Shown here: positions 1 through 18,119 of the stretch, piece after piece
Layout: the number at the start of each line of letters is the position of its first letter
Position numbering within the stretch: the first letter of the stretch is position 1
Source of the DNA: Candidatus Iainarchaeum sp.
Lineage (GTDB): Archaea; Iainarchaeota; Iainarchaeia; Iainarchaeales; CSSED10-239
Length of the DNA stretch: 18,119 nt
Assembly: GCA_003559395.1 (NCBI GenBank)
Contig: PWLL01000029.1
Coordinates: forward strand, 1-18,119
Direction of reading: 5' to 3'
Translations under genes and position numbers: made by a program
Notes under the pieces: model-generated
Told to the model about the DNA's origin: nothing
The model's database searches: none
The model's input: only the letters and a program-made list of their open reading frames with translations

Positions 1-44
1 AAAAAACAAACGAAATAACAGAACAAGCCAAAAACCCATAAATT

Positions 45-758: not shown

Positions 759-785
759 ACTTAAAAAATTTATTTTATAAAAAAT

Positions 786-1421: not shown

Positions 1422-1575
1422 AATCTTCACATATATTATTAAATATAGAAAGAAATAAAAAGACAATACACAATAAAAACACTTTTGTTTTGTTTTATTT
1501 GTTGGACGAGTGAAAAAACACTTATTTTTATTTTTTTCTATACAACAAATATATATAAAATAAAAAAAGAAAACC

Positions 1576-1875
1576 ATGATTGATGTAAACGCAACAACCT
1601 CTGCAATTTCAGAAAAAGCAACAGAAGCAACAAATATTTTTTTTAACCCTACTTTCTTAATTTTAGGTGTTGTTTTTATAATTACTGCAATAGTTGTACT
1701 TTATTTTTTAAAAAACATTTTATTAAACAGTATTATTGGGGTTTTTGGTTTTCTTATATGTTATTTTATTTTTGGAATAAAACTGCCTTTCTTTATAACT
1801 TTGCTTGTAAGTGCGGTCTTTGGGATTGGTGGGCTTGGTACAATAATAATTCTTAAGTTTTTTGGATTGATTTAA
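1576..1875 (+). CDS. small integral membrane protein, BofA-family-like
   Basis: 99 aa with about three hydrophobic helices. The C-terminal half GIKLPFFITLLVSAVFGIGGLGTIIILKFF resembles the GI-x-V-P ... G-I-x-G-I-x-G ... K-x-F core of Bacillus BofA as I remember it. By-eye only. Confidence 0.5.
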   Translation: MIDVNATTSAISEKATEATNIFFNPTFLILGVVFIITAIVVLYFLKNILLNSIIGVFGFLICYFIFGIKLPFFITLLVSAVFGIGGLGTIIILKFFGLI

Positions 1876-1892
1876 TAAAGAGGGGAAAAATT

Positions 1893-2093
1893 ATGAACCT
1901 GAATTTTTTAATAATCTTGTTAATTGTTTTATTAACATTTACAATGGGGGTTACAACAACTACAGACACACAACCAACTTGTGGTGTAACTGATGATGGT
2001 GGTTGCTGTTGCGATAGGTATTGTGAAGACTTCTCCGTATGGTGTTGCCCAGTAGCACATATCCCAAATGACAGCAAGATGGTTGCTAAATAG
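1893..2093 (+). CDS. small Cys-rich peptide with N-terminal signal/anchor helix
   Basis: 66 aa. AGAGGGGA (1879-1886) lies 6 nt upstream of the ATG at 1893. The peptide has a hydrophobic N-terminus (MNLNFLIILLIVLLTFTMG), a Thr-rich linker (VTTTTDT), then 7 Cys within 23 residues (C-x7-CCC-x3-C-x6-CC). The coding part is visibly more GC-rich than its flanks. The 74-aa ORF on the opposite strand (1853..2077) is judged a shadow. Confidence 0.5.
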   Translation: MNLNFLIILLIVLLTFTMGVTTTTDTQPTCGVTDDGGCCCDRYCEDFSVWCCPVAHIPNDSKMVAK

Positions 2094-2101
2094 ATTTATT
2101 T

Positions 2102-3394: not shown

Positions 3395-3399
3395 AAAAA

Positions 3400-4038
3400 T
3401 CAAAAGATTTTATTTAGTGCTTCAACATCTAGTTTTTTTATATCGGTTATATGAAGATCACAAGGACATTTGTCTGGTATTTTAGTCATAACACCAACAG
3501 CCTTCATTTTTGCTCTTTTTGCAGCTTTTAAACCTGCAAAGGCGTCTTCAACAACTATACAGTCTTCTGGTTGAGCCATCATTCTTTTTGCAGCCAATAA
3601 AAAAACATCTGGGTTTGGTTTTCCTTTTTTTACTTGGTCACCTGTAATAATTACTTCAAAGAAAGAACGCAATCTAGAGTTGTTTAATATCGCATGAACA
3701 AACTGTTTGTTAGAAGAGGAAGCAATGGCCAATCTAAAACCATTATCTTTTAACTTAATAATAAGTTGGTTTATTCCTGGAAAAGGCTTTATACTTGTTG
3801 CTTTTTTCTTTAAAATTGTCCAGTATTCTTCTGTTAAACGTCTTACTTCTTCTTCAGAAATTTTTTTGTTATTTTGTTTAGCTAGCGTTTTTATAATTTC
3901 GTTTACTTTTACGCCTTTAAAGTCTTTTAGGTTTTCTGAATATATTTTATGTTTTTTTAAAAATTGGGTTTGTATCTTTATATGTAGTTTAACGGTATCT
4001 ACAACAACACCATCAAAATCAAAAATAATAGCTTTCAT
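3400..4038 (-). CDS. HAD-IA superfamily hydrolase (beta-phosphoglucomutase/phosphatase-like)
   Basis: 212 aa. HAD motif I is IIFDFDGVVVDT, motif II is AIASSS, and motif III/IV is KGKPNPDVF ... VVEDAFAGLKAAKRAKM. GGAG lies about 10 nt upstream of the ATG. Confidence 0.8.
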   Translation of the reverse strand: MKAIIFDFDGVVVDTVKLHIKIQTQFLKKHKIYSENLKDFKGVKVNEIIKTLAKQNNKKISEEEVRRLTEEYWTILKKKATSIKPFPGINQLIIKLKDNGFRLAIASSSNKQFVHAILNNSRLRSFFEVIITGDQVKKGKPNPDVFLLAAKRMMAQPEDCIVVEDAFAGLKAAKRAKMKAVGVMTKIPDKCPCDLHITDIKKLDVEALNKIF

Positions 4039-4103
4039 TTTATTTTTCTCCTTATATGATATATACTATAAATAAATAATAGTAACAAAGTGTATAAATA
4101 TCC

Positions 4104-5474
4104 TTACCCTGTTATAACAATTCTTGGTTTTAAAGAAACAACTTTTTTTACAAGCTTTGCATTAACTAAAGAATCAACAACGTCTTCTGAAGGTTTATAT
4201 GCTAAAGGAGTTTCTTCTCTCATAACGTTTTCTGATCTTCCAGATAAAATAATATTGTCTTTTTGCATGTTTTCTTTAAGTTCGGCAATAGTTGATTGTG
4301 ATTTTGCTTTTTTTCTGGACATTTGTCTTCCAGACCCGTGTGCGACTGTGTTGAAGGTTTCTTTTAGATTTTCTTTAGAACCAGGTAAAAGAACGTGCGT
4401 TTTGTGTTGCATTGACCCTGGCAAAATCACAGGAACACCAGCCTCTTTATATTGACTTTTATTATCTTCTGCGTCTTTTGTGTACACTCTAGTGGCACCT
4501 TTTCTGTGCACGATTAGTTTTTTAGAGTGTTTTTCTACTTTTGCTATGTTGTGACAAAGATCATATAACAAATCAAAGGAAACATCTTTATTAACGTCTG
4601 CTAACGTTTTTTTTAATGTGTCTTCTATTGCACGATTAAGAACAGTTCTATTTACAAAAGCAAAATTTGCAGCAGCCAACATAGATTGGTAATATTCTTG
4701 ACCAAGCTTGGAATGAAAAGGTTCGTAAGAGATTGGTGTTTTATTAGTAAACTTGTTTGTAAAATCTGTAGCCACTTGGTGACCAAATCCTCTTGAGCCT
4801 GTGTGTAACAATATACAATATTGGTCTTTAAACAAACCTAACGCCCTAGCTTGTTTTTCATCAAAAACATCTGAAACAAGCAACAAGTCTATAAAATGGT
4901 TTCCTTGACCTAGCGTACCAATTTGTTGAAGCCCTCTTTTTTTTGCTTGTTTTGAAAGAAAGTCTATTGATGCGTCTTTATAACTTCCTTGGTCATCTAT
5001 TTTTTTCTTAGAATTTTTAGCACCAAGGTTGTTTTTTATTGCCCAATCAACACCGGTTAATAAAAGGTCTTCAAAATCTGCATTCGTTATTTTAAGACCA
5101 TCGTGGGATAGTCCTAATGGTAAATTTTCTAGAGCTTTTGTTATTTTTTTAAGATGTTCTATAGATAAGTCGTTTTTATAAAGATTAGTTTTTATTAGTC
5201 TTACTCCACAATTAATATCAAAACCAACAGCTTCAGAACTTATTATGCCTGTATCATAATCTGTTGCAAAACAACAACCAATAGGCACACCAAACCCAAC
5301 ATGCATGTCTGGCAAACCAATTACTTTTTTATAAACAGAGTCTATTTGTGTTATTGATAACAATTGATCAACGGCTGATTGTTCTATGTTGTTGAATATT
5401 TTTTTGTTTGCGATAAGGTTTACATCTTTGTTGTTTTTTCTACAAGAAAAAGAGTTTTTGTTTTCTTCAAACAT
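4104..5474 (-). CDS. rtcB: RNA-splicing ligase RtcB
   Basis: 456 aa. Motifs seen: GLPDMHVGFGVPIG, GFDINCGVR (metal Cys), GQGNHFIDL, HTGSRGFGHQV, HNIAKVE, HRKGATR, PGSM and AHGSGR (guanylylated His). All are RtcB hallmarks. Confidence 0.93.
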   Translation of the reverse strand: MFEENKNSFSCRKNNKDVNLIANKKIFNNIEQSAVDQLLSITQIDSVYKKVIGLPDMHVGFGVPIGCCFATDYDTGIISSEAVGFDINCGVRLIKTNLYKNDLSIEHLKKITKALENLPLGLSHDGLKITNADFEDLLLTGVDWAIKNNLGAKNSKKKIDDQGSYKDASIDFLSKQAKKRGLQQIGTLGQGNHFIDLLLVSDVFDEKQARALGLFKDQYCILLHTGSRGFGHQVATDFTNKFTNKTPISYEPFHSKLGQEYYQSMLAAANFAFVNRTVLNRAIEDTLKKTLADVNKDVSFDLLYDLCHNIAKVEKHSKKLIVHRKGATRVYTKDAEDNKSQYKEAGVPVILPGSMQHKTHVLLPGSKENLKETFNTVAHGSGRQMSRKKAKSQSTIAELKENMQKDNIILSGRSENVMREETPLAYKPSEDVVDSLVNAKLVKKVVSLKPRIVITG

Positions 5475-5516
5475 ATATAAAAAAATTTAAAAAGAACATT
5501 AATGATAGTCGTTAAA

Positions 5517-5825
5517 CTATGCATTAAGTTCTAAACTTATTTGTACGTCTGTTGGTACATCAACGCGCATGATTCTTCTAAGTATTTTATCATCTGCGTT
5601 TATATCTATTATTCTTTTATGTATTCTTAACTGAAATTTTTCATAAGTTTCTGTACCGCCGCCAGAAGCGCCTCGTCTAACAGGTACAACCAACTTTTTT
5701 GTTTTTAGAGGAATGATGCCTGAATGTTTGGCACCACTCTTTTTTGCAATATCTATTACATCGTCACAAAATTCTGTTAGTTTTTTATAATCTGTTCCAG
5801 TTATGATAACTCTTGCTGTTTGCAT
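5517..5825 (-). CDS. rps10: 30S ribosomal protein uS10
   Basis: 102 aa. ARVIITGTDYKKL...IPLKTKKLVVPVRRGASGGGTETYEKFQLRIHKRIIDI is archaeal S10. It sits directly after EF-1alpha, as at the end of the archaeal str cluster. GAGGA lies upstream of the ATG. Confidence 0.93.
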   Translation of the reverse strand: MQTARVIITGTDYKKLTEFCDDVIDIAKKSGAKHSGIIPLKTKKLVVPVRRGASGGGTETYEKFQLRIHKRIIDINADDKILRRIMRVDVPTDVQISLELNA

Positions 5826-5840
5826 AGTATTTCCTCTAAT

Positions 5841-7103
5841 TTACTTTTGTCTTGGTTTTATTTCTGTAACAACACCTGCAGCAACAGTTTTGCCCATATC
5901 TCTTATTGCAAATCTTCCAAGTTGTGGAAAATCTTTGTATGTTTCTACACAAAGTGGAGATAGTGGTTTTATTTTTACTATAGCTGCATCTCCTGTTTTT
6001 AAGAATTTTGGATTATCTTCTTGTGTTGGTGCAGTTTTTTTAATTATTTCTGTAACACTACAAGAAATTTGTGCTGTGTGCAAATGGAAAACAGGTGTAT
6101 ATCCAGGAGTTATTGCTGTAGGATGATTAAGCACAACAATTTGAGCAGTAAATTCTTCTGCAACGGTTGGTGCGTTATCTATTGGGCCTATAACAGATCC
6201 TCTTTTGATATCTCCTTTTCCAATTTTTCTAAGATTAAAACCAATGTTGTCACCAGGTCCAGCTGAAGCTAATTGTTCATGGTGTGCTTCAATGGATTTT
6301 ATGTCTGTTGGTATGTTTTGTGGCATAATAACGACTTTGTCGTTTGGTCTTAATATTCCAGTTTCTACTCTTCCAACAGGAACAGTACCCACACCTTTAA
6401 TATTATAAACATCTTGAACTGGCAGTCTTAGTGCTTTATCGGTTGGTATTTCAGTTGCTTTAAAAGTATCCAAGTGTTCTAACAATGTTGGTCCACTATA
6501 CCAAGGCATGTTTTCTGATTTTTTAACAATGTTGTCTCCATTCCATGCAGATGTTGGAATAACAGTGATTTGTTCTTTTTTGTATCCTGTTCTTGTAAGT
6601 AAAGCAGTAACTTCTTCACTTACTTCTTTAAATCTCTCTTCTTTATAGTCTACAACATCCATCAGGTTTACAGAAACAATTAATTGTCTAATTCCCATTA
6701 CTTGTGCAAGGAAGGCGTGTTCTTTTGTTTGTGCTTTAACTCCATCTTTTGCATTACAAACAAGTACGGCTGCGTCAGATTGTGCAGCACCTGTAATCAT
6801 ATTTTTTATATAGTCGGAGTGTCCTGGAGCATCAATTATTGTAAAATAGTTTTTTTGTGTTTCTAATTTTTTATAGTTTACATCGATTGTAACTCCTCTT
6901 TCTCTTTCTTCTTTAGTAACGTCCATCATGTATGCAAAAGCAAAAGTACCTTTTCCTTTCTCTTCTGCAATAGCTTGTAACTTTCTATAGTCTTGTTCAC
7001 TTAAGTTACCTGAATCGTACATTAAACGACCAACAGTTGTTGATTTTCCGTGATCAATGTGTCCAATAAAAATAACATTGATTTTTGGTTTGTCTGAAGC
7101 CAT
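5841..7103 (-). CDS. tuf: translation elongation factor 1-alpha (aEF1A)
   Basis: 420 aa. G1 is GHIDHGKST, G2 is RGVTID, G3 is DAPGH and G5 is SAW. G4 reads NLMD rather than NKMD. GGAGG (7112-7116 on the plus strand as cctcc) lies 8 nt upstream of the ATG. Confidence 0.95.
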   Translation of the reverse strand: MASDKPKINVIFIGHIDHGKSTTVGRLMYDSGNLSEQDYRKLQAIAEEKGKGTFAFAYMMDVTKEERERGVTIDVNYKKLETQKNYFTIIDAPGHSDYIKNMITGAAQSDAAVLVCNAKDGVKAQTKEHAFLAQVMGIRQLIVSVNLMDVVDYKEERFKEVSEEVTALLTRTGYKKEQITVIPTSAWNGDNIVKKSENMPWYSGPTLLEHLDTFKATEIPTDKALRLPVQDVYNIKGVGTVPVGRVETGILRPNDKVVIMPQNIPTDIKSIEAHHEQLASAGPGDNIGFNLRKIGKGDIKRGSVIGPIDNAPTVAEEFTAQIVVLNHPTAITPGYTPVFHLHTAQISCSVTEIIKKTAPTQEDNPKFLKTGDAAIVKIKPLSPLCVETYKDFPQLGRFAIRDMGKTVAAGVVTEIKPRQK

Positions 7104-7285
7104 TTATAATTCCTCCATATTAGTTTTTATTTTTTTTAAAACCTTTTTATTTTTAAAAATATTTCATAAACACACATAACAGATAAATGTATGCTTATAA
7201 AAAACATTTTAAATAAAGTTATATGCTATAAATAATATAAAGAGACATAAACCTTTTTAAATAGATTATTTCTGTTATCAAAACC

Positions 7286-7328
7286 TTTGTTTTGTTTTAA
7301 ATTTAGATTATTTTTAAAACAAAGCAAA
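7286..7328. promoter_or_regulatory. imperfect inverted repeat in the tuf/cdc48 divergent intergenic region
   Basis: tttgttttgttttaaa (7286-7301) pairs with tttaaaacaaagcaaa (7313-7328) at 15 of 16 positions, with an 11-nt loop. The core 11 bp (7291-7301 / 7313-7323) is perfect. The loop contains tagattattt, which also occurs at 7262-7271. It is AT-rich, so chance is not excluded. Confidence 0.25.
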
Positions 7329-7403
7329 AAAATAAAAAAAAGATTGTTTTTATAAATTTTGTATCTATATTATTCTAGAGAGGAACAAATAAATGTGAAA
7401 AAA

Positions 7404-9623
7404 ATGAAAGAAAGAGCGTTTTTAAATGTAAAAGAAATGGATCTTGCAGATGTTGGAAAAAATATTGCAAAAATTGATCCTTTGATTTTTGAAAAACTTA
7501 AACTTAACATAGGTGACACTATAAAAATAACTGGCGCAAAAAATTCAAAAGCCGCGATTGCAATCGCGATTAAAGGAAAAATAAATGACACAGGCACAAA
7601 CGTCATTAGAATCGATGGTGCAACAAGACAAAACAGTGGTACCTCTATTGATGAAGAAATAAGTATAGAAAAAATTGATTGTCTTATTGCTAAAAGCGTA
7701 AATCTTACGCCAGTTGTTGAAGACGAACTTAAAAACAACGAAATTATTTCACAAATTTTAAAACAACTTAATAGAGATGATATTAAAAGTTATATAAAAG
7801 AATATTTATTACATAAAAACTATCTAGAAGGAAACATTATAAAAATTCCAAAAATAAGTCTTCCATCAAAAACAGGAGATGCAAAACCATTACAACTAAG
7901 CGTAACAAAAATTTTGCCAAAAGGACCTATCAGAATTGTAGAAAACACAAAAGTAGTTCTTGAAGAAAAACCAGAAGTTGGAGTTTTAGGAATTACTTAT
8001 GATGATGTTGGCGGACTTAAGAAAGAAATAGAAGCCATAAGAGAAATGGTTGAATTGCCTATAAGAAAACCAGAAATTTTTAGAAGGTTAGGAATATCAC
8101 CACCTAAAGGTGTTTTGTTGTATGGATCTCCAGGAACAGGAAAGACTTTGTTAGCTAAAGCAGTGGCTTCTGAAACAGATGCTTATTTTAAAAGTATTAA
8201 TGGTCCAGAAATTGTTACAGGAGTTTATGGAAAAAGTGAAGAAAATTTAAGAGATATTTTTAAAGAAGCAGAAGAAAAAGCCCCAGCAATTATTTTTATT
8301 GACGAGCTTGATGCAATTGCGCCTAAAAGAGAAGATACACACGGAGATACAGAAAAAAGAATTGTTGCGCAATTATTAACTCTAATGGATGGGTTAAGTG
8401 CAAGAACAAACATCGTTGTTATTGCAACTACAAACAGACCAAACTCTATAGATCCCGCCTTAAGAAGACCAGGAAGATTTGATAGAGAAATTGAGTTTGG
8501 TGTTCCAGATAAAAATGCACGAAAAGAGATTTTAAAGATACATACTAGAAACATGAAACTAGATGAAAAAGTAAATTTAGAATTTCTTATTGAAAGAACA
8601 AACGGGTTTTCTGGTGCGGATCTTCAAATGTTGTGTAAGGAGGCTGCATTAAAAACTATTAAAAGACTAAAACCAAAGATCGATAAAGAAATTGATGACA
8701 GTTTATCAAAATCTTTGTTAGACGAACTAGTTATTAACCAAAAAGATTTTGAAGACGCGTTACATGTTGTTGAGCCAAGTGCTATAAGAGATATACAAGT
8801 AAACATACCAAGTACAAAATGGAAAGATATCGGAGGTATGGAAAAAGAAAAACAATATCTTAAAGAAATGATTGATTGGCCAATAAATCACAAAGAAGTT
8901 TTTAATAACGTAGGCATAAAACCACCAACAGGCATTCTTTTGTATGGCCCGCCAGGTACAGGAAAAACCATGCTTGCAAAAGCAATCGCAACCGAGTCTA
9001 ATTCTAATTTTATATCTATTAAAGGTTCTGATATTTTCAACAAATGGGTTGGAGAAAGTGAAAAGAAAGTCAGAGAAATTTTTAAGAAAGCGAGGTTGTT
9101 GGCGCCTTCAATTGTGTTCTTTGATGAAATTGAGGCTATTACTAGCAGAAAAACAACGAATGAGTCAACCAACGTAACAAACAATGTTGTTGCAGAACTA
9201 CTTACTGAGATTGATGGCGTTTCTAAGTTAGAAGATGTAATTGTGGTTGGGGCAACAAATAGAATAGATCTTGTAGATGTTGCTTTTTTAAGATCCGGAA
9301 GATTTGATAGAGTAGTTCATGTGCCGTTGCCGTCTGTTGAGGATCAAGAAAATGTATTTAATGTTTATTTAAATAAAATAAATACAGACGAAGATGTAAA
9401 AGCAAAAGAACTTGTGAAAATATTAAACGAAGATAGCGATCAAAAATATTCTGGTGCGGATATTGAAGCCATCTGTAATGAGGCCGCGATGGGTCGTATA
9501 AGAAAAATAATAAATAACAAAGAAAAAAAACAAATCGTAACTTTAGATGACTTTAAAAAAGCAATTGGGTTTTTTAAGAAAAAAGAAGAAAGTGAAGAAA
9601 AAAACTACCAGATGATAAGATAA
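7404..9623 (+). CDS. cdc48: Cdc48/VAT-type double-ring AAA+ ATPase
   Basis: N-domain-like start: IAKIDPLIFEKLKLNIGDTIKITG...VIRIDGATRQNSG. D1 has Walker A GSPGTGKTLLAKAVA, Walker B IIFIDELDA and PALRRPGRFDREI. D2 has GPPGTGKTMLAKAIA, IVFFDEIEA, the pore loop KWVGESE and LRSGRFDR. The track ORF begins at TTG 7359. ATG 7404 is chosen here, and the in-frame GTG 7395 is an alternative (GAGG at 7380-7383 lies 11 nt upstream of it). Confidence 0.9.
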   Translation: MKERAFLNVKEMDLADVGKNIAKIDPLIFEKLKLNIGDTIKITGAKNSKAAIAIAIKGKINDTGTNVIRIDGATRQNSGTSIDEEISIEKIDCLIAKSVNLTPVVEDELKNNEIISQILKQLNRDDIKSYIKEYLLHKNYLEGNIIKIPKISLPSKTGDAKPLQLSVTKILPKGPIRIVENTKVVLEEKPEVGVLGITYDDVGGLKKEIEAIREMVELPIRKPEIFRRLGISPPKGVLLYGSPGTGKTLLAKAVASETDAYFKSINGPEIVTGVYGKSEENLRDIFKEAEEKAPAIIFIDELDAIAPKREDTHGDTEKRIVAQLLTLMDGLSARTNIVVIATTNRPNSIDPALRRPGRFDREIEFGVPDKNARKEILKIHTRNMKLDEKVNLEFLIERTNGFSGADLQMLCKEAALKTIKRLKPKIDKEIDDSLSKSLLDELVINQKDFEDALHVVEPSAIRDIQVNIPSTKWKDIGGMEKEKQYLKEMIDWPINHKEVFNNVGIKPPTGILLYGPPGTGKTMLAKAIATESNSNFISIKGSDIFNKWVGESEKKVREIFKKARLLAPSIVFFDEIEAITSRKTTNESTNVTNNVVAELLTEIDGVSKLEDVIVVGATNRIDLVDVAFLRSGRFDRVVHVPLPSVEDQENVFNVYLNKINTDEDVKAKELVKILNEDSDQKYSGADIEAICNEAAMGRIRKIINNKEKKQIVTLDDFKKAIGFFKKKEESEEKNYQMIR

Positions 9624-9626
9624 AAT

Positions 9627-11567
9627 CTATAGTGATTTTTTAAAAGAATCATCATCGATGGTAAAAACATCTTCTTTTGAAATCATTTTTGGTAAATAAC
9701 AAAGGTTGTTTGTTTTATATGTTTGTATAAAGTCTTTTTTCATATCTTCTATTACTTGGTTTGTTTTTTCATAAAATAAATTAACATTACAAATACCATC
9801 ACAAAACTTTTCAAAAACGTTTTGTAGTTTTATTAAGTGCTGGTTGTTTATTTTTTCTCGGGGAGTGCCTTCTAAAAAAGAATAATTTTCGTTAGCGATT
9901 TTTACGAATTTATGATTTTCTGGTGGGTTTATGGTGTTGGTCGTGTTATTAGCGATCGAATAAATGTCTGAAAAAATAACAGAGTAGGTTGTAGAATTTC
10001 TAATACCAAATTTTCTTTGATTATTTTTTAGTTCTGTCCAATCAACAAGCAATTTGGTTGTAAGCAGTTTTTTTGCTTTGTTAATTTCTGAAAATAATGT
10101 TTTTTGAACACCTTTACTGTATTCAAACACGTCGTTATCTATATATTTTGTTTTTGTATAATCTAAAAAAGGTCTTTTTTCTTTTGCAAGTTCAATAGAT
10201 GCTTTTTTGGAATAATACGATACAAATTCTGAAAGATTTTCGCCAAACACTAGTGCGTCGTCACTTTCAAAAGGAACGTCCAACAAATCCAACAAAGAAA
10301 AATAACCAGTGATAGACAAATAAAGTCTTCGTGTTTTTTTAACGTTTTTTTCCAAACTTTCGTCTAAGTATTCTGAGTGGTCTATACAGGCGTCTAAAAA
10401 TTTCACAGAGTTAAATATAACTTCTTTTAATTCTTTCCATTTAAAGGTTTTTAGAGCACCTGTGGTTCTTACAAATTTTGAAACATCAATAATACCTGTA
10501 AAAAAAGAGTCATTTTCAAAAACGGGTTGATAACCAATAGATGAAAGTTCGTTAGTTTTGTCTAAAAAAACATTTTTATTTTTTAATTTATCAACAAAAA
10601 CAAAATCAAAATAATTTTCATCAATAATCTTTGAAAATAAAAAATCTAAATAAAGGGATGGTGTGATTGTTTGTTCTGCTTCTTCTTTTGTTGTTTCTAT
10701 TGTTTTTGCTCCTTCTTTTTTTAAATAATAAACTTTATTTTCTAACAAATTATGCATAAATCTATCTGGTATTAAAAAAACAAAATTATTGTTTTTAGAA
10801 GTTTTGTTTTTAACCACATCAATGGCGTCTGGATGTTCTATATTTATATAAAAGGTATTTTGTGCGTTTTTTTGTTTTCGATCTGTTATTTTTTCTTGTG
10901 CTAATATATAAAAATCAATTATGTTTTTTATACCACACGCTTTTTTTTTAGTTGAGGACACAAGCGCTTCTTTAGATCTTATATTATCTAAGTTTATTGC
11001 AGATGGCACTTTTTTTTTCTCACATTTAGATTTAACTAATAAAGAGTCAAAGATATCTTCTAAACAATCAGAAAGTCTAATTGTTTGAGAAGAAAAAATC
11101 AAATTTGTTTTGTGGTTGGTTAGTATGTTTGTGGATGGGTAAAAAACACCTGTTTTAATATATTCAATAATTTGGTCAGTAAGTTTTGGATTTTCACTAA
11201 ACCTTTGTTTTAAATTAAAAGGATTATCAAAACCTGTTTCTAAATTTAAAAAAGAAACGAACATTTTTTCTTTAATTATGTGTTGTGTTTGCGTGTCTTT
11301 TTTTTTATGTCTTGTAACGTATATTTCGTGTAGGTTTTTATTTTTTTCTAATAGTATTTCTTTAATATATTCTTCTAGTTCTTCTTTAGATAAAGAAGCT
11401 TGTTTTTTTTGCTCAATTTTTTCAAAAACACTTTTTGATATTTTTTCACAAAGTTCTATATTTGGTTCTCCTATCAAATAAGTTAATTCAAACAAACTAA
11501 TAGTTAGTTTTTCTAATGAGAAAGACTCTACATTATTATTTTTATCTGTAATTGTTATATTTGCCAT
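9627..11567 (-). CDS. class II ribonucleotide reductase-like protein with ATP-cone-like N-terminus, catalytic motifs lost (putative pseudoenzyme)
   Basis: 646 aa. By-eye collinearity with the RNR large-subunit barrel: SAINLDNIRSKEALV aligns with GGGxGxxxSxLRPxG. FYINIEHPDAIDVVKNK aligns with the HPDI-eF-K block. NFVFLIPDRFMHNLLEN aligns with N-x-s-v-x-v-x-D-x-FM. VFVDKLKNKN...LSSIGYQPVF...FFTGIIDVSKFV aligns with F-x-D-x-x-N...NPCGEQPL...CNLGSINLSKFV. FLDACIDHSEY...KKTRRLYLSITGY...SIELAKEKRPF aligns with FLDnviD...tRRiGLGvmG...S-x-x-LA-x-E-x-G-x-F. GIRNSTTYSVIFS aligns with RNs-x-x-x-x-iAPTG. HLIKLQNVFEKFCDGICNVNL...NNLCYLPK aligns with H-x-x-mqAA-x-Q-x-x-vD-x-x-iSKTiN...KG-x-T-x-YR. The N-terminus ITITDKNNNVESFSLEKL is ATP-cone-like. 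Consensus strings are from memory. Confidence 0.6.
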   Translation of the reverse strand: MANITITDKNNNVESFSLEKLTISLFELTYLIGEPNIELCEKISKSVFEKIEQKKQASLSKEELEEYIKEILLEKNKNLHEIYVTRHKKKDTQTQHIIKEKMFVSFLNLETGFDNPFNLKQRFSENPKLTDQIIEYIKTGVFYPSTNILTNHKTNLIFSSQTIRLSDCLEDIFDSLLVKSKCEKKKVPSAINLDNIRSKEALVSSTKKKACGIKNIIDFYILAQEKITDRKQKNAQNTFYINIEHPDAIDVVKNKTSKNNNFVFLIPDRFMHNLLENKVYYLKKEGAKTIETTKEEAEQTITPSLYLDFLFSKIIDENYFDFVFVDKLKNKNVFLDKTNELSSIGYQPVFENDSFFTGIIDVSKFVRTTGALKTFKWKELKEVIFNSVKFLDACIDHSEYLDESLEKNVKKTRRLYLSITGYFSLLDLLDVPFESDDALVFGENLSEFVSYYSKKASIELAKEKRPFLDYTKTKYIDNDVFEYSKGVQKTLFSEINKAKKLLTTKLLVDWTELKNNQRKFGIRNSTTYSVIFSDIYSIANNTTNTINPPENHKFVKIANENYSFLEGTPREKINNQHLIKLQNVFEKFCDGICNVNLFYEKTNQVIEDMKKDFIQTYKTNNLCYLPKMISKEDVFTIDDDSFKKSL

Positions 11568-11579
11568 GTTATTACCTTT

Positions 11580-12236
11580 TTATCTTAAAATATATTCTTT
11601 ATTTTCTGCATCTAAAAGAGAATAGATGGTTTTATTATTTAGTTCTTTTAAAGTGTTTTTGTTCACGAAATCTTGGACAAATATTTTTTCTCCATCAACA
11701 TAATTTAAAAGAACATCAAATTCTTCTTTTGTAAGTTCTGGATGTGTGGTGATTCTAAATTCTCTTGAAAGATTTGAGGATTTTATAATTTCTATACTTT
11801 CTTGTATATTTTCGACTGGCACTTTTGTAAAACAAGAATATTTTTCAAAAGTTTGTTTAATATCCATTGCAACATAATCTATTAATTTTTTGTTTATTAG
11901 ATTTTTAATAAGTTCTGGATTAGATCCGTTTGTATCTAGTTTAACTAAGTAGTCTTTTTCTTTTATTTTTTTAATAAAGTCTACGAGTTCTTGATTGTGT
12001 ATGGTTGGTTCTCCACCAGTAACGACTACGCCGTCTATCATTTTTTTTCTTTTATCTAAAAATTCAAATATTTCTTTTTCTGGAATTGTTGGTTGTTTTT
12101 CAATTTCTTCTGGCAAAACTAGTTGTTTGTTGTAACAATAACCACATCTAAAATTACAGCCTTTTAAAAAAACAATACAGCTGATTTTTTTAGGATAGTC
12201 TATAACACTAAATTTTTGAAAACCACCAATCTCCAT
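11580..12236 (-). CDS. nrdG: anaerobic ribonucleoside-triphosphate reductase activating protein (radical SAM)
   Basis: 218 aa. GGFQKFSVIDYPKKISCIVFLKGCNFRCGYCYN contains the CxxxCxxC cluster, and VVVTGGEPTIH is the SAM-binding GGEP motif. It lies directly downstream of nrdD. Confidence 0.88.
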   Translation of the reverse strand: MEIGGFQKFSVIDYPKKISCIVFLKGCNFRCGYCYNKQLVLPEEIEKQPTIPEKEIFEFLDKRKKMIDGVVVTGGEPTIHNQELVDFIKKIKEKDYLVKLDTNGSNPELIKNLINKKLIDYVAMDIKQTFEKYSCFTKVPVENIQESIEIIKSSNLSREFRITTHPELTKEEFDVLLNYVDGEKIFVQDFVNKNTLKELNNKTIYSLLDAENKEYILR

Positions 12237-12254
12237 AATAATCCAATTTTAAGA

Positions 12255-12392
12255 TTATGCTACTTTAAACACTTTTCTATCTTTAAATTCTTCTTGTTTT
12301 CCATAATTCCAAGAACTAGTTGGTCTTATATAACCCACAACTCTTGAATATACTTGACATTTTGTTCTTTTTGTTTCTATTTTTTCTTCCAT
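12255..12392 (-). CDS. stand-alone glycyl-radical domain of NrdD (45-aa ORF, below the ORF-track length cutoff)
   Basis: My translation of the minus strand from ATG 12392-12390 to TAA 12257-12255 is MEEKIETKRTKCQVYSRVVGYIRPTSSWNYGKQEEFKDRKVFKVA. It contains the NrdD C-terminal signature S-R-x-x-G-Y (radical glycine) and W-N-x-G-K-x-x-E-x-x-x-R. AGGTGAT (12402-12396) gives GGTGA-N4-ATG, the same spacing as before tspO. The frame is +1 relative to nrdD. Confidence 0.7.
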   Translation of the reverse strand: MEEKIETKRTKCQVYSRVVGYIRPTSSWNYGKQEEFKDRKVFKVA

Positions 12393-12396
12393 TAAA

Positions 12397-14433
12397 TCAC
12401 CTTTTATTTTCTATTTCACAATCACATTTTGGACAATATTCATGTTCTCCAAAAAGATAACCGTGTACTGGACAAATACTAAAAGTTGGTGTGATTGTAA
12501 AGTAGGGTATTTGATAATTTTCTGCAACTCTTTGTATTAGTTTTTTTATAGCTTCTGCATCTGGTTTTTTTTCTCCAATAAATATGTGTAATACTGTTCC
12601 GCCTGTATATTTTATTTGAAGATCGTCTTGATTATCTAAAACTTCAAAAACATCGTCTGTATAGTCTACAGGTACTTGTGTTGAATTGGTATAGTAAGGA
12701 TGTGCTTTTTTGTTTTGATATGCTTCTTCGTTTGCAACTTTTATATATGGATATTGTTTTTTATCATTTATTGCAAACCTATATGTCGTTCCTTCTCCTG
12801 GTGTTGCTTCTAGGTTGTATAGGTTTCCTGTTTCTTTTTGATATTCTTCTAGTTTTGTTCTTATAAAGTCCATTACTTTTAATGCAAAGTTTTTTCCTTC
12901 TTTTGTTGTAATGGTCGTGTTTAAAAAATTAATTAAAGACTCGTTCATTCCCAAAATCCCAATTGTGGAAAAATGATTTTTCCAGTATTTTCCAAAGTTT
13001 TTTTTAATAAAGCCAAGATTATGTTTTGAATAAGGATATAAACCAAAGTCTGTAAATCTTTCAAGTACTTTTCTTTTTATTTCTAAGGATGTTTTAGATA
13101 TTTCTAATAATTCTTCTAATCTTGCAAAATATTCTTCTTCTGTTTTTGATAAACATCCAATTTGAGGAAGATTTATGGTTACAACACCAATAGATCCTGT
13201 TAGTGGGTTTGCTCCAAACAAACCCCCTCCTCTTTTTTGAAGTTCTTTATTATCTAATCTCAATCTACAACACATACTTCTTGCATCTTCTGGACGCAAA
13301 TCAGAGTTTACAAAGTTTGCAAATGTTGGTATTCCAAATTTAATGGTTACTTCTAATATTTTTTCTGCAATCTTAGTATTCCAATCAAAGTCTTTAGTTA
13401 TGTTTATTGTAGGAATTGGAAAAGAAAACAGATTTCCTGCGCCATCTCCTTCTAAAAAAACTTCTAACAACAATTCGTTAAAAAGATCTACTTCTTTTTG
13501 AAATTCTCCATATGTTTTTTCTTGTGGTTTTCCGCCAATTATAACTGGCTGGTCTTTTAGGGTTGAAGGTATTGTTAAATCTAAAGTAATGTTGCTAAAC
13601 GGACACTGAAAGCCAACTCTTGTTGGTATATTCATATTATAAAAAAAACATTCTATTTGTTTTTTTGCTTCTTTTCTTGAAAGTTTGTTGTAATAAATAA
13701 AAGGTGCTAAAAGTGTATCAAAGTTACTAAAGGCTTGTGCTCCTGCTGCTTCGCCTTGTAAAGTGTATATAAAATTAGTTATTTGAAGAAGAGCAGTTGT
13801 GAAATATTTTGGTGGTGAACAAACAATCTTGCCTGGCGCGCCTCTAAAGCCTTTTAATAATAAATCTTGTAAATCCCAACCAACACAATATGGCCCTAAA
13901 GTAGATAGATCATGAATGTGTATTTTTGTTTTTTCGTGTGCTTCTTTTATTTCTGGTGGGTATATTTTTCTTAACCAGTAATCTGAAACAATTTTATTTG
14001 ATAAATAATTGTTTAGTCCTTGTAAAGAAAAATCCATGTTACTGTTTTCTTTTACTTTCCAGTCTGATGATGTTATGTACCCATCAACAACAGAAACACT
14101 ATCTAATAATTTTGAAAAGTTTCTTAGTTCTTCGTGTTGTTTTCTATATATAACGTATGCTTTTACTAGTTTTGTTAGGCCTTCTTTTATTAAAATATCT
14201 TCTATAACATCTTGTATATTTTCTACGTTAGGGGTTATGTTTCTTTTAAAGTATTTTTTATTAATTTCTGCATCTATTTTTTGGGTCAATTTTTCTGCAA
14301 TGGTTATGTCTGGGTTGTTTGTTGCGTTTAGTGCTTTAATTAATGCTAGTTTAATTTTATAAATATTGTATTGTTTTTTTATGTTGTTTCTGTTAAACAC
14401 GCATTTATTATTTATGTTTTTAATAGTCACCAC
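12397..14433 (-). CDS. nrdD: anaerobic ribonucleoside-triphosphate reductase, large fragment (ATP-cone + barrel + Zn ribbon, no glycyl-radical motif)
   Basis: 678 aa with a GTG start at 14433. The ATP-cone end is LTKLVKAYVIYRKQHEELR. The thiyl loop ARSMCCRLRLD, GGGLFGANPLTGSIGVVTINLPQIG, and the Zn ribbon FSICPVHGYLFGEHEYCPKC are present. It terminates at TGA 12399-12397, before any R-x-x-G-Y glycyl-radical motif. Confidence 0.9.
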   Translation of the reverse strand: MVTIKNINNKCVFNRNNIKKQYNIYKIKLALIKALNATNNPDITIAEKLTQKIDAEINKKYFKRNITPNVENIQDVIEDILIKEGLTKLVKAYVIYRKQHEELRNFSKLLDSVSVVDGYITSSDWKVKENSNMDFSLQGLNNYLSNKIVSDYWLRKIYPPEIKEAHEKTKIHIHDLSTLGPYCVGWDLQDLLLKGFRGAPGKIVCSPPKYFTTALLQITNFIYTLQGEAAGAQAFSNFDTLLAPFIYYNKLSRKEAKKQIECFFYNMNIPTRVGFQCPFSNITLDLTIPSTLKDQPVIIGGKPQEKTYGEFQKEVDLFNELLLEVFLEGDGAGNLFSFPIPTINITKDFDWNTKIAEKILEVTIKFGIPTFANFVNSDLRPEDARSMCCRLRLDNKELQKRGGGLFGANPLTGSIGVVTINLPQIGCLSKTEEEYFARLEELLEISKTSLEIKRKVLERFTDFGLYPYSKHNLGFIKKNFGKYWKNHFSTIGILGMNESLINFLNTTITTKEGKNFALKVMDFIRTKLEEYQKETGNLYNLEATPGEGTTYRFAINDKKQYPYIKVANEEAYQNKKAHPYYTNSTQVPVDYTDDVFEVLDNQDDLQIKYTGGTVLHIFIGEKKPDAEAIKKLIQRVAENYQIPYFTITPTFSICPVHGYLFGEHEYCPKCDCEIENKR

Positions 14434-14446
14434 GTTTTAAAATTAG

Positions 14447-14458
14447 TTTTTTTATATG
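14447..14458 (-). promoter_or_regulatory. candidate TATA box for the nrdD transcript
   Basis: The minus strand reads CATATAAAAAAA and ends about 16-20 nt upstream of the GTG start, which is compatible with a short-leader or leaderless archaeal mRNA. The AT-rich background makes this weak. Confidence 0.25.
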
Positions 14459-14577
14459 TTACTAAATAGTAGATTAATCATTTTAAAAAGGTATTTGTTA
14501 TAAAACAAAATAATTTTTAAACAATATATTTGGTTTATGAAAAAACCTATTTTTTAGTGTTTTTTTGTTATGTATAC

Positions 14578-15048
14578 TTAATTTATTAAAAATATCCAAA
14601 AATTAAGGATTGTTGCAAAAAACAACCACAATAGATAGGGAACTAACAAATATGCTGCTGTTTTTTTAATTTTATAAAAGTTAATAATGGTTAATATCAC
14701 TAAAACATTTAAAACCAAAATACAAAACAGCCCAAATAACGGTGATTGTAAGGTAAAAAAGAAAAATGACCAAGAAATATTAAAAATTAATTGTGTAAAA
14801 AATAAAAGTGTGCTTTTTATTTTTTGTTGTGTTTTTGGTTGTAGCCATATTAGATATTATAGAGAAACACCCATTAATATAAACAAAAGAGTCCAAGCAA
14901 TAGGAAACGCAAGGTTAGGTGGGGTAATTGGTGGTTTGTTTAAAAAATCGTACCAAGAACCTAGGCTTGTTTGTGTAAATTGCGAACCAATAGTTCCTGC
15001 ACTTAATGAAACTATAATAGATATTATTAGTTTAAATATATTTTTCAT
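14578..15048 (-). pseudogene. tspO: TspO/MBR family tryptophan-rich sensory protein interrupted by one in-frame TAA
   Basis: The track ORF 14857..15048 (63 aa, ...GSWYDFLNKPPITPPNLAFPIAWTLLFILMGVSL) ends at TAA 14859-14857. The same frame then continues for 92 codons: YLIWLQPKTQQKIKSTLLFFTQLIFNISWSFFFFTLQSPLFGLFCILVLNVLVILTIINFYKIKKTAAYLLVPYLLWLFFATILNFWIFLIN. It stops at TAA 14580-14578. Together this is a 156-codon, full-length TspO with WY..L.KP, QL..N..WS..FF and PY..W..FA..LN. GGTGA lies 4 nt upstream of the ATG. Confidence 0.75.
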
Positions 15049-15216
15049 ATGTTCACCAAAATAATTTATGTTGATTTTGTTTTTTTGTAAATAATTTATT
15101 AGTTAGTTATTAAAAAGACACAAATATATTTTAAACAAACATATTAAAAACACTTTTATTTTCATTTTTATTCTTAAACAATATAATTATAAACTTTAAA
15201 AACAATAATAATAGTG

Positions 15217-16086
15217 ATGATTGAAGAAAATAAAGATTTGATTTTAGAGGATAATAAAAAAATTATTGAAGATTTTAATGATCATTTAAATATTCAAGGA
15301 TATAGTGAAAAAACAATTGAAATTTATAAATTATATTTAACTCTTTTTTCTAAATATGTTAATAAAAATCTTAAACAAATAACTAATAAAGATATTATTG
15401 GTTATTTATCGTACATGAAAAAAGAAAAAAATATAAATAACACGTCTTTGTCTTTAATTTTGTCTTGTATAAAACATTTTTATAAAGAATTTTTAAAAAA
15501 TAATTTAATAATTGATGTTAAACTTCCTAGAAAATCTAAAAAAATACCAACAGTATTAACTACAAAAGAAATAAAAGAACTTATTGAGGCTACAAAAAAA
15601 TTTAGAAATAAATTGATAATTAAGTTTATTTTTTCTACAGGTGTTAGAGTGTCTGAGTGTGTAAATGCAAAAATAAGAGATCTTAATTTTGATGAACTTA
15701 CTGGACGAGTGGTTAGTGGAAAAGGAAATAAAGATCGTTTGATTATATTATCTAAAAATTGGATTGATGATTATAAAAAATATTTAGAAAATAGAAATAA
15801 AAAAATAAATTCAGAGTATTTGTTTTGTAATAACAAAGGAGAACAGTTATCTGTAGATACTATTCAAAAATTCTTAAAAGTATCTGCTCAAGAAGCAAAT
15901 CTTGATAAAAATATAAGTCCGCACACTTTAAGACATTCTTTTGCAACAAGTCTTTTAGAGGATGATATTAATATAAGATATATACAACAATTATTAGGTC
16001 ATTCAAACCTAAATACAACACAAATATATACTAAAGTTAATACTAATAAACTAAAAACTATTAAAAATCCATTAGATAACATGTAA
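15217..16086 (+). CDS. xerA: XerA/XerC-like tyrosine recombinase
   Basis: About 289 aa. The N-terminal SAM-like core-binding domain reads FNDHLNIQGYSEKTIEIYKLYLTLF...IKHFYKEF. Catalytic residues are present: TGVRVSE (Arg), GKGNKDR (Lys), HTLRHSFAT (His-x-x-Arg) and LLGHSNLNTTQIYT (His/Tyr). The track starts at GTG 15214; ATG 15217 is preferred. Confidence 0.85.
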   Translation: MIEENKDLILEDNKKIIEDFNDHLNIQGYSEKTIEIYKLYLTLFSKYVNKNLKQITNKDIIGYLSYMKKEKNINNTSLSLILSCIKHFYKEFLKNNLIIDVKLPRKSKKIPTVLTTKEIKELIEATKKFRNKLIIKFIFSTGVRVSECVNAKIRDLNFDELTGRVVSGKGNKDRLIILSKNWIDDYKKYLENRNKKINSEYLFCNNKGEQLSVDTIQKFLKVSAQEANLDKNISPHTLRHSFATSLLEDDINIRYIQQLLGHSNLNTTQIYTKVNTNKLKTIKNPLDNM

Positions 16087-16274
16087 AAACACAGAGACCC
16101 CACACTTCGTGTATTAAATTGAAAAAAACTAAACTTTGTTTAAAAATAGAAAACAAAGATTTTCTTAAAATAATATTTAGATACAAAAAAGAAAACATTT
16201 ATAAACACTTTGTATGATGTTTTCTATATAATGAAGTAATTTTTATTATATTTATATTTTGGAGGATGAAAAAT

Positions 16275-16631
16275 ATGGCAACAAGATTATCAAAATTGTT
16301 TGGAATGGATATATACGAAACAAACGCAACATATAGAGGAAAAGTTTATGATTTAGTAGTTAATTTAGAACAAGGAATAATAGAAACAATAACTACACAA
16401 CCACTAAAAGTAAACTCAAAACAAGAAGCTAAAAAAATAATAACAGAACATAGTATACCTTATAAAAAAGTAATATCTGCAGATGATATTATTCTTATAA
16501 ATTCAGGAAACGTACCAGTACAAAATAAAATTCCTAAACAAGAAGAAATGATGAATGAAACAAATGATACAGAATCAAAGATAAGAAAGAAATATATAGG
16601 TTATAAAAGTAAATATTCAAGATCTAGATAA
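16275..16631 (+). CDS. PRC-barrel domain protein
   Basis: LSKLFGMDIYETNATYRGKVYDLVVNLEQGIIETI matches the archaeal PRC-barrel pattern (l-x-G-x-x-V-y...G-x-v-x-D-l-v-v-d...G-x-i). GGAGG (16261-16265) abuts the track ATG at 16266 but lies 9 nt upstream of the in-frame ATG at 16275, so 16275 is taken as the start. Confidence 0.6.
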   Translation: MATRLSKLFGMDIYETNATYRGKVYDLVVNLEQGIIETITTQPLKVNSKQEAKKIITEHSIPYKKVISADDIILINSGNVPVQNKIPKQEEMMNETNDTESKIRKKYIGYKSKYSRSR

Positions 16632-16659
16632 AGATTATATGTTTTATTCTTTTTTTTAT

Positions 16660-16679
16660 TATATATATATATATATATA
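16660..16679. repeat. (TA)10 dinucleotide microsatellite
   Basis: A tatatatatatatatatata run is read directly from the sequence, in the intergenic region after a T8 tract that follows the PRC-barrel stop codon. Confidence 0.9.
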
Positions 16680-16750
16680 AATATATTTATATTATTAATT
16701 ATACATAACTACTTTTATAATTATATAAAAATTAATACAAGAAGTACGGG

Positions 16751-17362
16751 GTGTGTGAGATTTTGGAAAAACTATTATGTAAATATATTACGTATAAATT
16801 TATTTTTAATAATAATATAAATAAGTCATCTTATACTTATCAAAAACTATTTAGATCAATTTATGGTTATAATCAATCAATTTATAAAAGAAATTCTAAA
16901 AAATATATATATTTTAGAGAAGGTGTTATTTCTTCTATTCCTTATATAAAATCTGGTAAAAATTCTGTTATTTTACCTATAGATTATGAACATAAACTAA
17001 TAGATTATTTTAATACCGGTAATAACCCAGCACATAAGTGGAAAATAAAAGGTGATTGGGATGTTAGTTATGCTATTAATGATATTCATATAGATTTATT
17101 TAATATATCTGTAGCTATGGAAAAATTTATTAGAAATTATAAAATTTTTTCTAATGATTTTAAAAGTTATAATTATATAGAATTTGAATTGAAAAAATTT
17201 TTTGAAAGTAATTTAAATAATTACCAATATAAAGAATATTTAATATCTAATTTAAAATATTTATTTGATTTTGAATGGATTTATAAATCTATAAATTATT
17301 CTGAACATATAAAAAACATTTATAATAAATATTTATTATTAAAAGAAAATTCTTCTGAATAA
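16751..17362 (+). CDS. hypothetical Tyr/Asn/Lys/Ile-rich protein (ORFan)
   Basis: 203-aa ORF with no ATG start. The candidates are GTG 16751 or in-frame TTG 16763, preceded by GGGGTG at 16748-16753. It is extremely AT-rich, and no family was recognised. It remains open for about 200 codons in stop-rich sequence, which argues for real coding. Confidence 0.45.
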   Translation: MCEILEKLLCKYITYKFIFNNNINKSSYTYQKLFRSIYGYNQSIYKRNSKKYIYFREGVISSIPYIKSGKNSVILPIDYEHKLIDYFNTGNNPAHKWKIKGDWDVSYAINDIHIDLFNISVAMEKFIRNYKIFSNDFKSYNYIEFELKKFFESNLNNYQYKEYLISNLKYLFDFEWIYKSINYSEHIKNIYNKYLLLKENSSE

Positions 17363-17363
17363 T

Positions 17364-17996
17364 TTATTCTATAATGATTATTTTTTTCTTCCAAGATCTT
17401 TTTTTCCCTGTATTATTTACTTTTATTAAATTTATGTCTGTTAGTGTTTTTAAGTATGGGTACAGACTTTTTTCGTTTTTATATTCTATGTTGTATTCTA
17501 ATTTTATTCTTTGTTTTATTTCGTTCATATCAACCCATTGATCTGAAGGAATTACTTTAATAAGATGTTCTGCTTGTGTGTTTTCTTTTATTTTTAGGAT
17601 ATCCCAAATTGTATTTATTTCGTTTTCTAGTTTTATTACGTTATGTATTTTTGGTTTTTCGTGTTCGTATTGGTTAATCATTTTTTCTTTATTTTGTTGT
17701 TCTAATAATTGACCATTGCTAGTTAAATTTGTTATTTCTTCTGCATAGTTTTTTTCATTTTTTTGTTCGTTATTTATTATATTGTCTTTATTATTTTCTT
17801 TGTTTATTTGTTCATTATTTACTGTGTTGTTTTGATCATTTTCTAGATTTGTTTTTTTTTGAGTTTCAATATTTTGTGTTTTTGTTATGTTATTTTGTGT
17901 TTCTGGTTTTTTTTCTTCTGTTTCATTAATTGTGTATTTTTGCAATTTTTTAACTATATAAGTTATACTTTTTTTAAATATACTTGTCATAAACAT
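17364..17996 (-). CDS. hypothetical protein: N/Q/E/K low-complexity N-terminal half, winged-helix-like C-terminal domain
   Basis: 210 aa. Residues about 20-100 are low complexity (TQNNITKTQNIETQKKTNLENDQNNTVNNEQINKENN...). The C-terminus TIWDILK...DQWVDMNEIKQRI...SLYPYLKTLTDINLIKVNNTGKKRSWKK has a helix-helix-hairpin pattern reminiscent of wHTH regulators. The fold call is inference only. Confidence 0.45.
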   Translation of the reverse strand: MFMTSIFKKSITYIVKKLQKYTINETEEKKPETQNNITKTQNIETQKKTNLENDQNNTVNNEQINKENNKDNIINNEQKNEKNYAEEITNLTSNGQLLEQQNKEKMINQYEHEKPKIHNVIKLENEINTIWDILKIKENTQAEHLIKVIPSDQWVDMNEIKQRIKLEYNIEYKNEKSLYPYLKTLTDINLIKVNNTGKKRSWKKKIIIIE

Positions 17997-18018
17997 CTTT
18001 TTTTTATTATATAAATAT

Positions 18019-18092
18019 TGTAATTACCATAGTTATTTTAAATAGAATGGTAATTATTGTAGTTATTTTATTGTTTTTGTTGTAATTACCAT
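18019..18092. promoter_or_regulatory. three spaced copies of an imperfect GGTAATTACC palindrome (operator or iteron-like array)
   Basis: tGTAATTACC at 18019-18028, GGTAATTAtt at 18049-18058 and tGTAATTACC at 18081-18090. The exact 13-mer ttgtaattaccat occurs at 18018-18030 and 18080-18092. The 21-mers gtaattaccatagttatttta (18020-18040) and gtaattattgtagttatttta (18050-18070) match at 18 of 21 positions. Spacing is about 30 and 33 bp. The array lies 23-96 nt upstream of the start of the minus-strand gene ending at 17996. Confidence 0.5.
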
Positions 18093-18119
18093 AAAAACGA
18101 AGCGCACGCGTTATGTATA

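Follow-up and report, generated by a model that had tools for sequence, protein, structure and literature searches.

Introduction

To our knowledge, every characterised glycyl-radical enzyme carries the radical glycine on the same chain as its catalytic barrel. GrcA/YfiD (and Y06I of phage T4), a small autonomous glycyl-radical protein of pyruvate formate-lyase (PFL), supplements an enzyme that has a radical domain of its own, and GrcA is the one free-standing radical protein that we know of. Here we analysed an 18,119-nucleotide (nt) stretch of DNA from Candidatus Iainarchaeum sp. (assembly GCA_003559395.1, contig PWLL01000029.1, positions 1 to 18,119 of the forward strand; hereafter the window), in which the anaerobic, class III ribonucleotide reductase (RNR) NrdD is encoded in two pieces, with the radical glycine on a separate open reading frame (ORF) of 45 amino acids (aa). 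On the strength of sequence comparisons, we conclude that the two pieces very probably form a natural two-chain class III RNR that arose by gene fission.

Divided catalytic subunits have been described for class II (NrdJa/NrdJb of Pseudomonas aeruginosa and other gammaproteobacteria) and class I (NrdA-a/NrdA-b of phage Aeh1, where a homing endonuclease gene caused the split), and the review that covers them gives no class III case (PMC3267527). In the one-chain NrdD of Prevotella copri, the glycyl-radical domain (GRD) consists of a structural Zn site, a buried Gly loop and a surface tail, and becomes disordered upon dATP binding (PMC11226230). The initial annotation of the window had named no described natural NrdD of the split type, and our literature search, with most subscription papers outside its coverage, likewise turned up neither a two-chain NrdD nor a spare radical protein of the NrdD type; sequences of split NrdD are already public under generic names.

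Compared with the canonical one-chain NrdD and its activase NrdG (phage T4, Thermotoga maritima, P. copri), the locus shares the same profile, barrel, thiyl-cysteine loop, Zn site, SRVVGY loop and C-terminal tail. It differs in that the Gly loop and tail form a separate 45-aa polypeptide, in that the chain is interrupted after the Zn site and before the buried Gly loop, so that the fission cuts inside the GRD as defined in PMC11226230, and in a longer linker, CD.EIGY...KRTKC, specific to the clade of the window. Like NrdJa/NrdJb and the Aeh1 NrdA pair, each of which forms an active enzyme once assembled, it presents a catalytic subunit derived from two adjacent genes and conserved within a lineage. 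Unlike in Aeh1, no homing endonuclease lies between the halves, which are 4 nt apart in the window and at most 172 nt apart in relatives; unlike both systems, this one belongs to class III, and here it is the radical-storing element that has come away, a piece of only 45 aa.

Results

Two adjacent genes tile a single NrdD profile

The larger gene, nrdD-large, runs on the minus strand from 14433 to 12397 and encodes 678 aa ending in ...CPKCDCEIENKR; the residues preceding its TGA stop codon (12399-12397) read ...ICPVHGYLFGEHEYCPKCDCEIENKR. On the same strand, nrdD-small (12392 to 12255) opens with an ATG at 12392 and encodes the 45-aa protein MEEKIETKRTKCQVYSRVVGYIRPTSSWNYGKQEEFKDRKVFKVA. The two are separated by 4 nt and stand in a +1 frame relation. 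The junction itself (12396..12402, minus strand) consists of a Shine-Dalgarno (SD)-like AGGTGAT that encloses the stop codon of nrdD-large and is followed by TTA and the ATG, giving nrdD-small a GGTGA-N4-ATG initiation context, with identical SD and spacing ahead of tspO. The last sense codon of nrdD-large, AGG, is rare (9 of 5158 codons, 1.7 per 1000), and one A fewer in the AAAA run at 12405-12402 would fuse both frames. Direct reading of the sequence thus bore out what the initial annotation had said of the coordinates, frame, gap, initiation context and A-run arithmetic of the split.

The product of nrdD-large comprises an ATP-cone (E 1.7e-12), an alpha/beta-barrel core with the thiyl-cysteine loop MCCRLRLD, and a Zn ribbon (ICPVHGY...CPKC). 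It matched positions 1-528 of the 562-position Pfam NRDD profile (PF13597) at E 1.2e-172 and scored 958 bits against NF006126 (cutoff 548). It has no glycyl-radical loop, since it ends 8 residues past CPKC and the RVxGY motif sits on the 45-aa ORF, which in turn matched positions 531-562 of the same profile (E 2.8e-10). Both ORFs therefore tile a single NRDD profile with a clean break between 528 and 531, in agreement with the NCBIfam NrdD models, and the earlier identification of the 45-aa ORF as the NrdD C-terminus held. In an alignment of NrdD-large homologues the finger loop SMCCRLRLD was invariant, as were C654, H657, C667 and C670 of the Zn ribbon, a predicted metal site, in 58 sequences. 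The small chain carries the Gly loop KCQVYSRVVGY, with the radical Gly20 at codon 12335-12333, and the tail WN.GK..E..DRK.F; C12, Y15, S16, R17, V19, G20, W28, N29, K32, E35 and R39 were invariant across 66 small ORFs.

A Pfam scan of the small ORF at E<=1 returned only PF13597, with no PFL-type Gly_radical domain (PF01228), and none of the NCBIfam families returned for it models a free-standing small protein. A search of the PDB sequences with the 83-aa junction region gave nothing useful. No second Gly motif was found within the window. Together, the two genes encode by profile and motif every conserved element of NrdD, beside what by the same measures is a bona fide activase.

We also modelled the directly concatenated chains with AlphaFold2 (predicted local distance difference test, pLDDT, 85.4; predicted template modelling score, pTM, 0.80). 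Residues 671-720, which cover the small chain (679-723) minus its last 3 residues, had pLDDT values of 80-92, and a helix (668-681) spanned the junction. The best Foldseek matches were the NrdD structures 8p23, 9d3x, 4coj and 1hk8, and the model superposes on 8p23, 4coj and 1hk8. The predicted structure thus shows compatibility of the joined chains with the canonical NrdD fold.

The split is conserved in relatives whereas the junction is not

The same 45-aa ORF and junction were present, unchanged, on JGI contig 3300000563 and in the Logan assemblies of runs SRR490128 and SRR490129. In five relatives whose large chain is 69-79% identical to that of the window (loci L017-L021), the gene order xerA, nrdD-large, 44-48-aa NRDD ORF, nrdG and RNR-like gene was kept, and all five were split, against the possibility raised earlier that close relatives would have a fused gene. 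Their junctions vary: a 5-nt gap with a +2 frame relation in L017, the nearest relative, and elsewhere a 49-nt gap, an 8-nt overlap or an ATGA overlap. A separate small ORF was also found in genomes whose large chain is about 60% identical to that of the window, with taxon titles Woesearchaeota, Pacearchaeota, 'archaeon', Falkowbacteria and Saccharibacteria. Down to about 55% identity the split was retained with non-homologous junction geometry. Of the junction conservation that the initial annotation had proposed to look for in relatives, the split itself was therefore kept, and the stop codon, SD and frame geometry were not.

These comparisons bear directly on the simplest artefact, a 1-nt mistake made in sequencing or assembly, and on a pseudogene of recent, strain-specific origin. 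The junction does adjoin an A4 run in which one base less fuses the frames, and the in-frame TAA of tspO means that the contig is not free of broken genes; yet the same junction recurs in three other assemblies (the two sequencing runs and the JGI contig), the split persists across the divergence just described, and the small ORF evolves under constraint. Over 32 codons, close pairs of small ORFs differed by 1-4 nonsynonymous and 9-16 synonymous changes. The uncorrected ratio of nonsynonymous to synonymous differences per site (pN/pS) was 0.02-0.5, with a pooled value of 0.28, a pattern that indicates purifying selection. We regard an error or recent pseudogene as extremely unlikely.

A metagenome scan with a profile of the small ORF gave 80 loci, which were then classified: 32 were fused, 24 were split with a large ORF ending nearby, 21 had a small ORF without a large ORF nearby, and the remaining 3 fitted none of these classes, because the contig broke off or the motif could not be located. 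Closer inspection showed L059 and L063, both counted among the 24 split loci, to be complete NrdD genes with a spare radical domain, described below. Across 36 split junctions (35 from relatives plus the window), the gaps ranged from -89 to +172 nt (median 7), the frame relation was 0 in 8 cases, +1 in 18 and +2 in 10, the stop codons TAA, TAG and TGA were all used, and an SD-like core was present in 22 of the 36. At L052, L093 and L101, nrdG is placed ahead of the small ORF, directly after nrdD-large. At L028 (2962-3120) and L047 (3001-3126) the small ORF has neither nrdD nor nrdG within 3 kb on either side, and its neighbours at L028 are unrelated (a GEVED-domain protein and others). Variable geometry, the large-nrdG-small order and unlinked small ORFs cannot be explained by a single indel, by read-through or by frameshifting, and the assembly error, recent pseudogene and programmed frameshift listed as alternatives in the initial annotation are thus rejected as general explanations.

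For the genome of the window in particular, a programmed +1 ribosomal frameshift at AAA-AGG-TGA would yield a fused 722-aa NrdD. The site has some of the right features: Lys-tRNA could re-pair +1 on A-AAA, the next codon is the rare AGG and then comes the stop, and the +1-shifted frame across the junction reads ...ENKGDLMEEK.... The rarity of AGG at this position is, however, accounted for by its being part of the SD of the small ORF, and the site is not conserved, since L017 with its 5-nt gap and +2 frame would need a different shift. Other junctions overlap by 4-17 nt or lie 49-172 nt apart with intervening stops, three loci have nrdG between the pieces, and each small ORF starts with an ATG of its own. 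We therefore consider a programmed frameshift very unlikely, and frameshifting in the window genome to give a minor fused by-product at most.

Two features of individual relatives were noted. In L019 (GCA_964463155.1), the TGA of nrdD-large was called as Trp, which gives a spurious 707-aa protein (P0004) that enters the small ORF in the wrong frame; the annotation of this metagenome-assembled genome (MAG) apparently used genetic code 4. For the window itself, genetic codes 4 and 25 were considered and rejected: in-frame read-through of the nrdD TGA yields unrelated, non-homologous sequence, the sole apparent ORF merges under table 4 run antisense to cdc48, and the interruption of tspO is a TAA, not a TGA. 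Separately, an Aenigmarchaeota NrdD (L012, 5341-5445) ends with CPVCIKEEKNECRWSK followed by a stop codon, and no Gly-radical ORF was found in its 8.4-kb locus (about 3 kb on either side of nrdD); its partner may lie elsewhere, or the gene may be damaged.

Split NrdD is abundant among homologues

The initial annotation had allowed that the split might be unique to the genome of the window. This was not the case: 94 of the 120 closest large-chain homologues end 4-54 residues past the Zn-ribbon CxxC without a Gly motif, and the remaining 26 are fused. When a set of 5.8 billion proteins was searched with the small-ORF profile, the best 120 matches listed were all 44-84 aa long with a PF13597 match; few of them had names, either 'anaerobic ribonucleoside-triphosphate reductase' or 'hypothetical protein'. 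An exhaustive hidden Markov model search of 1.84 billion representatives clustered at 50% identity gave 5062 matches, 2430 of them at E<=1e-10. Among the best 150 of the 5062, 130 were small proteins with a Met start and no Zn ribbon, and one was a full-length fused NrdD. Free-standing small peptides thus account for at least 130 separate clusters at 50% identity.

Eighteen of the 120 closest large-chain homologues (P0006-P0013, P0015, P0018, P0020, P0021, P0039, P0068, P0078, P0089, P0110 and P0120) are about 1000 aa long, some with matches to LAGLIDADG (PF14528), and are intein-bearing forms of the GRD-less large chain. Inteins being common in the NrdD clade of the window, the two pieces might in principle be rejoined post-translationally by a split intein, or at the RNA level. 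There is, however, no room for intein halves, as the large chain ends 8 residues past the Zn ribbon and the small chain has about 10 ahead of the Gly loop, and no intein family matches either ORF; the probability of such rejoining is, in our view, negligible.

Two further variants were observed. A subgroup of GRD-less large chains (P0023, P0028, P0032, P0040, P0046, P0066, P0068, P0070, P0081, P0089 and P0110) has a tail of 30-50 residues past the Zn ribbon with a conserved ANRAQ[VA][IM]DA motif. A 66-aa JGI protein (P0121) has a tandem double Gly-radical motif (…CEVYSRVVGYLSPVSHWNEGKKEEWEVYSRVVGYLSPVSHWNEGKKEEW…), which may be a true duplication or a repeat introduced during assembly.

The break lies in a variable linker

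In fused relatives (labelled Bathyarchaeia, Thermoplasmata and Caldicellulosiruptor), 4-10 residues separate the CxxC from CEVYSR. The corresponding segment is longer in split forms, in which the large chain continues with CD.E[IL]G[YI] and a variable tail and the small chain starts with M...LE.KRTKCEVYSR. Two fused proteins, P0044 and P0052, have the same long linker without interruption (CD.E[IL]G..-variable-KRTK.E.YSR) and are nested among split sequences in a neighbour-joining tree, a position which shows that one-chain and two-chain forms apparently interconvert. The split or fused state changed about 8 times on this tree, a count that is only indicative, the tree being rough and the sample biased towards the query. 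The simplest account would be that the gene split long ago within a variable, lineage-specific linker and that the pieces were now and then fused again, which implies that one-chain and two-chain enzymes would be functionally equivalent.

A second family, of putative spare radical domains, accompanies complete NrdD

At L059 and L063, a complete 711-aa NrdD (profile 1-562 of 562) is followed after 1-4 nt by a 92-aa ORF and then by nrdG. The 92-aa ORFs (L059, 3134-3412; L063, 3137-3415; both on the plus strand) contain a Zn ribbon (CHDC...CSEC) and a Gly loop, and match NRDD positions 510-562 (E 2.4e-14). Compared with the C-terminus of the neighbouring NrdD over the 32-codon Gly region, the 92-aa ORF of L059 has 12 synonymous and 0 nonsynonymous differences. 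The family comprises at least 120 clusters among those listed out of 833 matches, and its named members are almost all from Patescibacteria (Paceibacterota, Minisyncoccales, Staskawiczbacteria), including MNSN_06970 of Minisyncoccus archaeiphilus.

These ORFs look like GrcA-like spare radical domains beside an intact class III RNR, and they suggest that NrdD may be able to accept a radical domain in trans. As their parent enzyme has its own radical domain, it is this family that constitutes the counterpart proper of GrcA for NrdD. The small chain of the window resembles GrcA/YfiD in being a small, free-standing carrier of the radical glycine for a large glycyl-radical enzyme barrel, with its own SD and ATG, and presumably in being activated by the activase of that enzyme; unlike the PFL parent of GrcA, however, NrdD-large has no radical domain of its own.

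Neighbouring genes in the window

The activase gene nrdG (11580..12236, minus strand) lies 18 nt past nrdD-small and encodes a 218-aa radical S-adenosylmethionine protein with the motif CNFRCGYC. The NrdG2 model TIGR02495 recognised it at 189.5 bits (cutoff 131.15); it also has Pfam Radical_SAM and Fer4_12 matches, and the CxxxCxxC motif is present. Directly after nrdG, and co-oriented with it, follows a 646-aa class II-like RNR paralogue (9627..11567, minus strand), which scored 152 bits against an NrdJ cutoff of 400. Where T. maritima NrdJ has NPCGE, the window paralogue has SSIGY and its counterparts at L020 and L021 have SPVGM; the two remaining active-site cysteines are substituted as well. 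This gene is apparently a conserved, catalytically dead RNR paralogue of the same operon; it is an operon neighbour, which does not imply membership of the split enzyme.

The window has a G+C content of 27% and its genes include aEF-1alpha, RtcB, Cdc48 and a XerA-like recombinase, which identifies the source as archaeal. In tspO (14578-15048, minus strand), a single in-frame TAA at 14857-14859 falls between LMGVSL and YLIWLQ, and both parts combined, about 157 aa, have the usual length of the protein; the interruption may reflect a nonsense pseudogene, an error or something else.

Discussion

Our analysis strongly supports the proposal of the initial annotation that NrdD occurs naturally in two pieces, the radical glycine being carried by a small polypeptide of its own beside NrdG. 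Across many genomes, both genes are conserved and uninterrupted, lie next to each other in the orientation of nrdG and evolve under purifying selection; the best reading is that the carriers are the organisms behind MAGs labelled DPANN and Candidate Phyla Radiation (CPR)/Patescibacteria. The small protein is foremost an obligatory subunit, because it is the only copy of the radical domain and not a supplement to an intact one.

In the two-chain enzyme, the break between Zn ribbon and Gly loop would leave the Zn site on the large chain and detach the Gly loop and the tail. The two genes would be co-transcribed in one operon and, in the window genome, probably translationally coupled, because the stop codon of the first lies inside the SD of the second and the gap is 4 nt. 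The 45-aa chain is expected to dock in the barrel so that its Gly loop faces the CCRL cysteine loop, as the C-terminus of one-chain NrdD does; NrdG would abstract the glycine hydrogen at Gly20, with the small chain free or bound, and the radical would move from Gly20 to the CCRL cysteine, after which the complex would reduce ribonucleoside triphosphates as usual.

Several considerations weigh against this interpretation. The model of the concatenated chains cannot show that an untethered peptide binds, and its C-terminal confidence is largely a reflection of homology with fused NrdDs. The taxon labels are titles of MAG records, which may include mis-binned contigs. Moreover, some ribosomes might slip +1 at AAA-AGG-TGA, with its rare AGG, and make a fused product in the window genome.

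The two-chain enzyme admits an extension, already put forward in the initial annotation, in which the fission is adaptive: the 45-aa chain would be a radical carrier charged off-enzyme by NrdG and swapped after cleavage by O2, as GrcA/YfiD is for PFL. The missing tether might likewise ease the access of NrdG to the glycine. The activase of PFL acts on short Gly-loop peptides. In the window, a strong SD precedes the small gene, an SD-like core is present at most of the junctions analysed, and the gene is unlinked from nrdD at L028 and L047. P. copri NrdD has a mobile GRD (PMC11226230). The 92-aa spare domains beside complete NrdD argue for a free domain that serves NrdD in trans, and would make exchange in the split enzymes more plausible, which is not proof of it. 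Against exchange, the tight coupling of the genes (the 4-nt gap and the ATGA overlaps) fits 1:1 co-assembly equally well, and the repeated interconversion of split and fused forms suggests near-neutrality. We consider exchange possible but doubtful; it builds on the two-chain explanation and does not exclude it.

A natural two-chain class III RNR of this abundance has consequences for annotation. Hundreds of 45-60-aa ORFs are named "anaerobic ribonucleoside-triphosphate reductase" or "hypothetical", and in reconstructions of the nucleotide metabolism of DPANN and CPR organisms the GRD-less large chains could pass for pseudogenes. The system would also offer a small natural setting for questions on how the activase reaches a glycine that lies buried in the active enzyme, on whether the radical domain moves out of the barrel and on the repair of oxygen damage.

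More speculatively, and with somewhat less confidence than we give to exchange in the split enzyme itself, NrdD-type free glycyl-radical peptides might represent a general radical-carrier strategy of ultra-small anaerobes, in which NrdG charges the peptide off-enzyme and the peptide either docks into a GRD-less barrel (the 45-aa form) or replaces a damaged GRD (the 92-aa form). If so, the supply of peptide, and not the turnover of the whole enzyme, would set RNR activity and recovery from oxygen in these organisms. For the enzyme family as a whole, a widespread natural two-chain NrdD would mean that the covalent link between the barrel and the radical glycine is dispensable.

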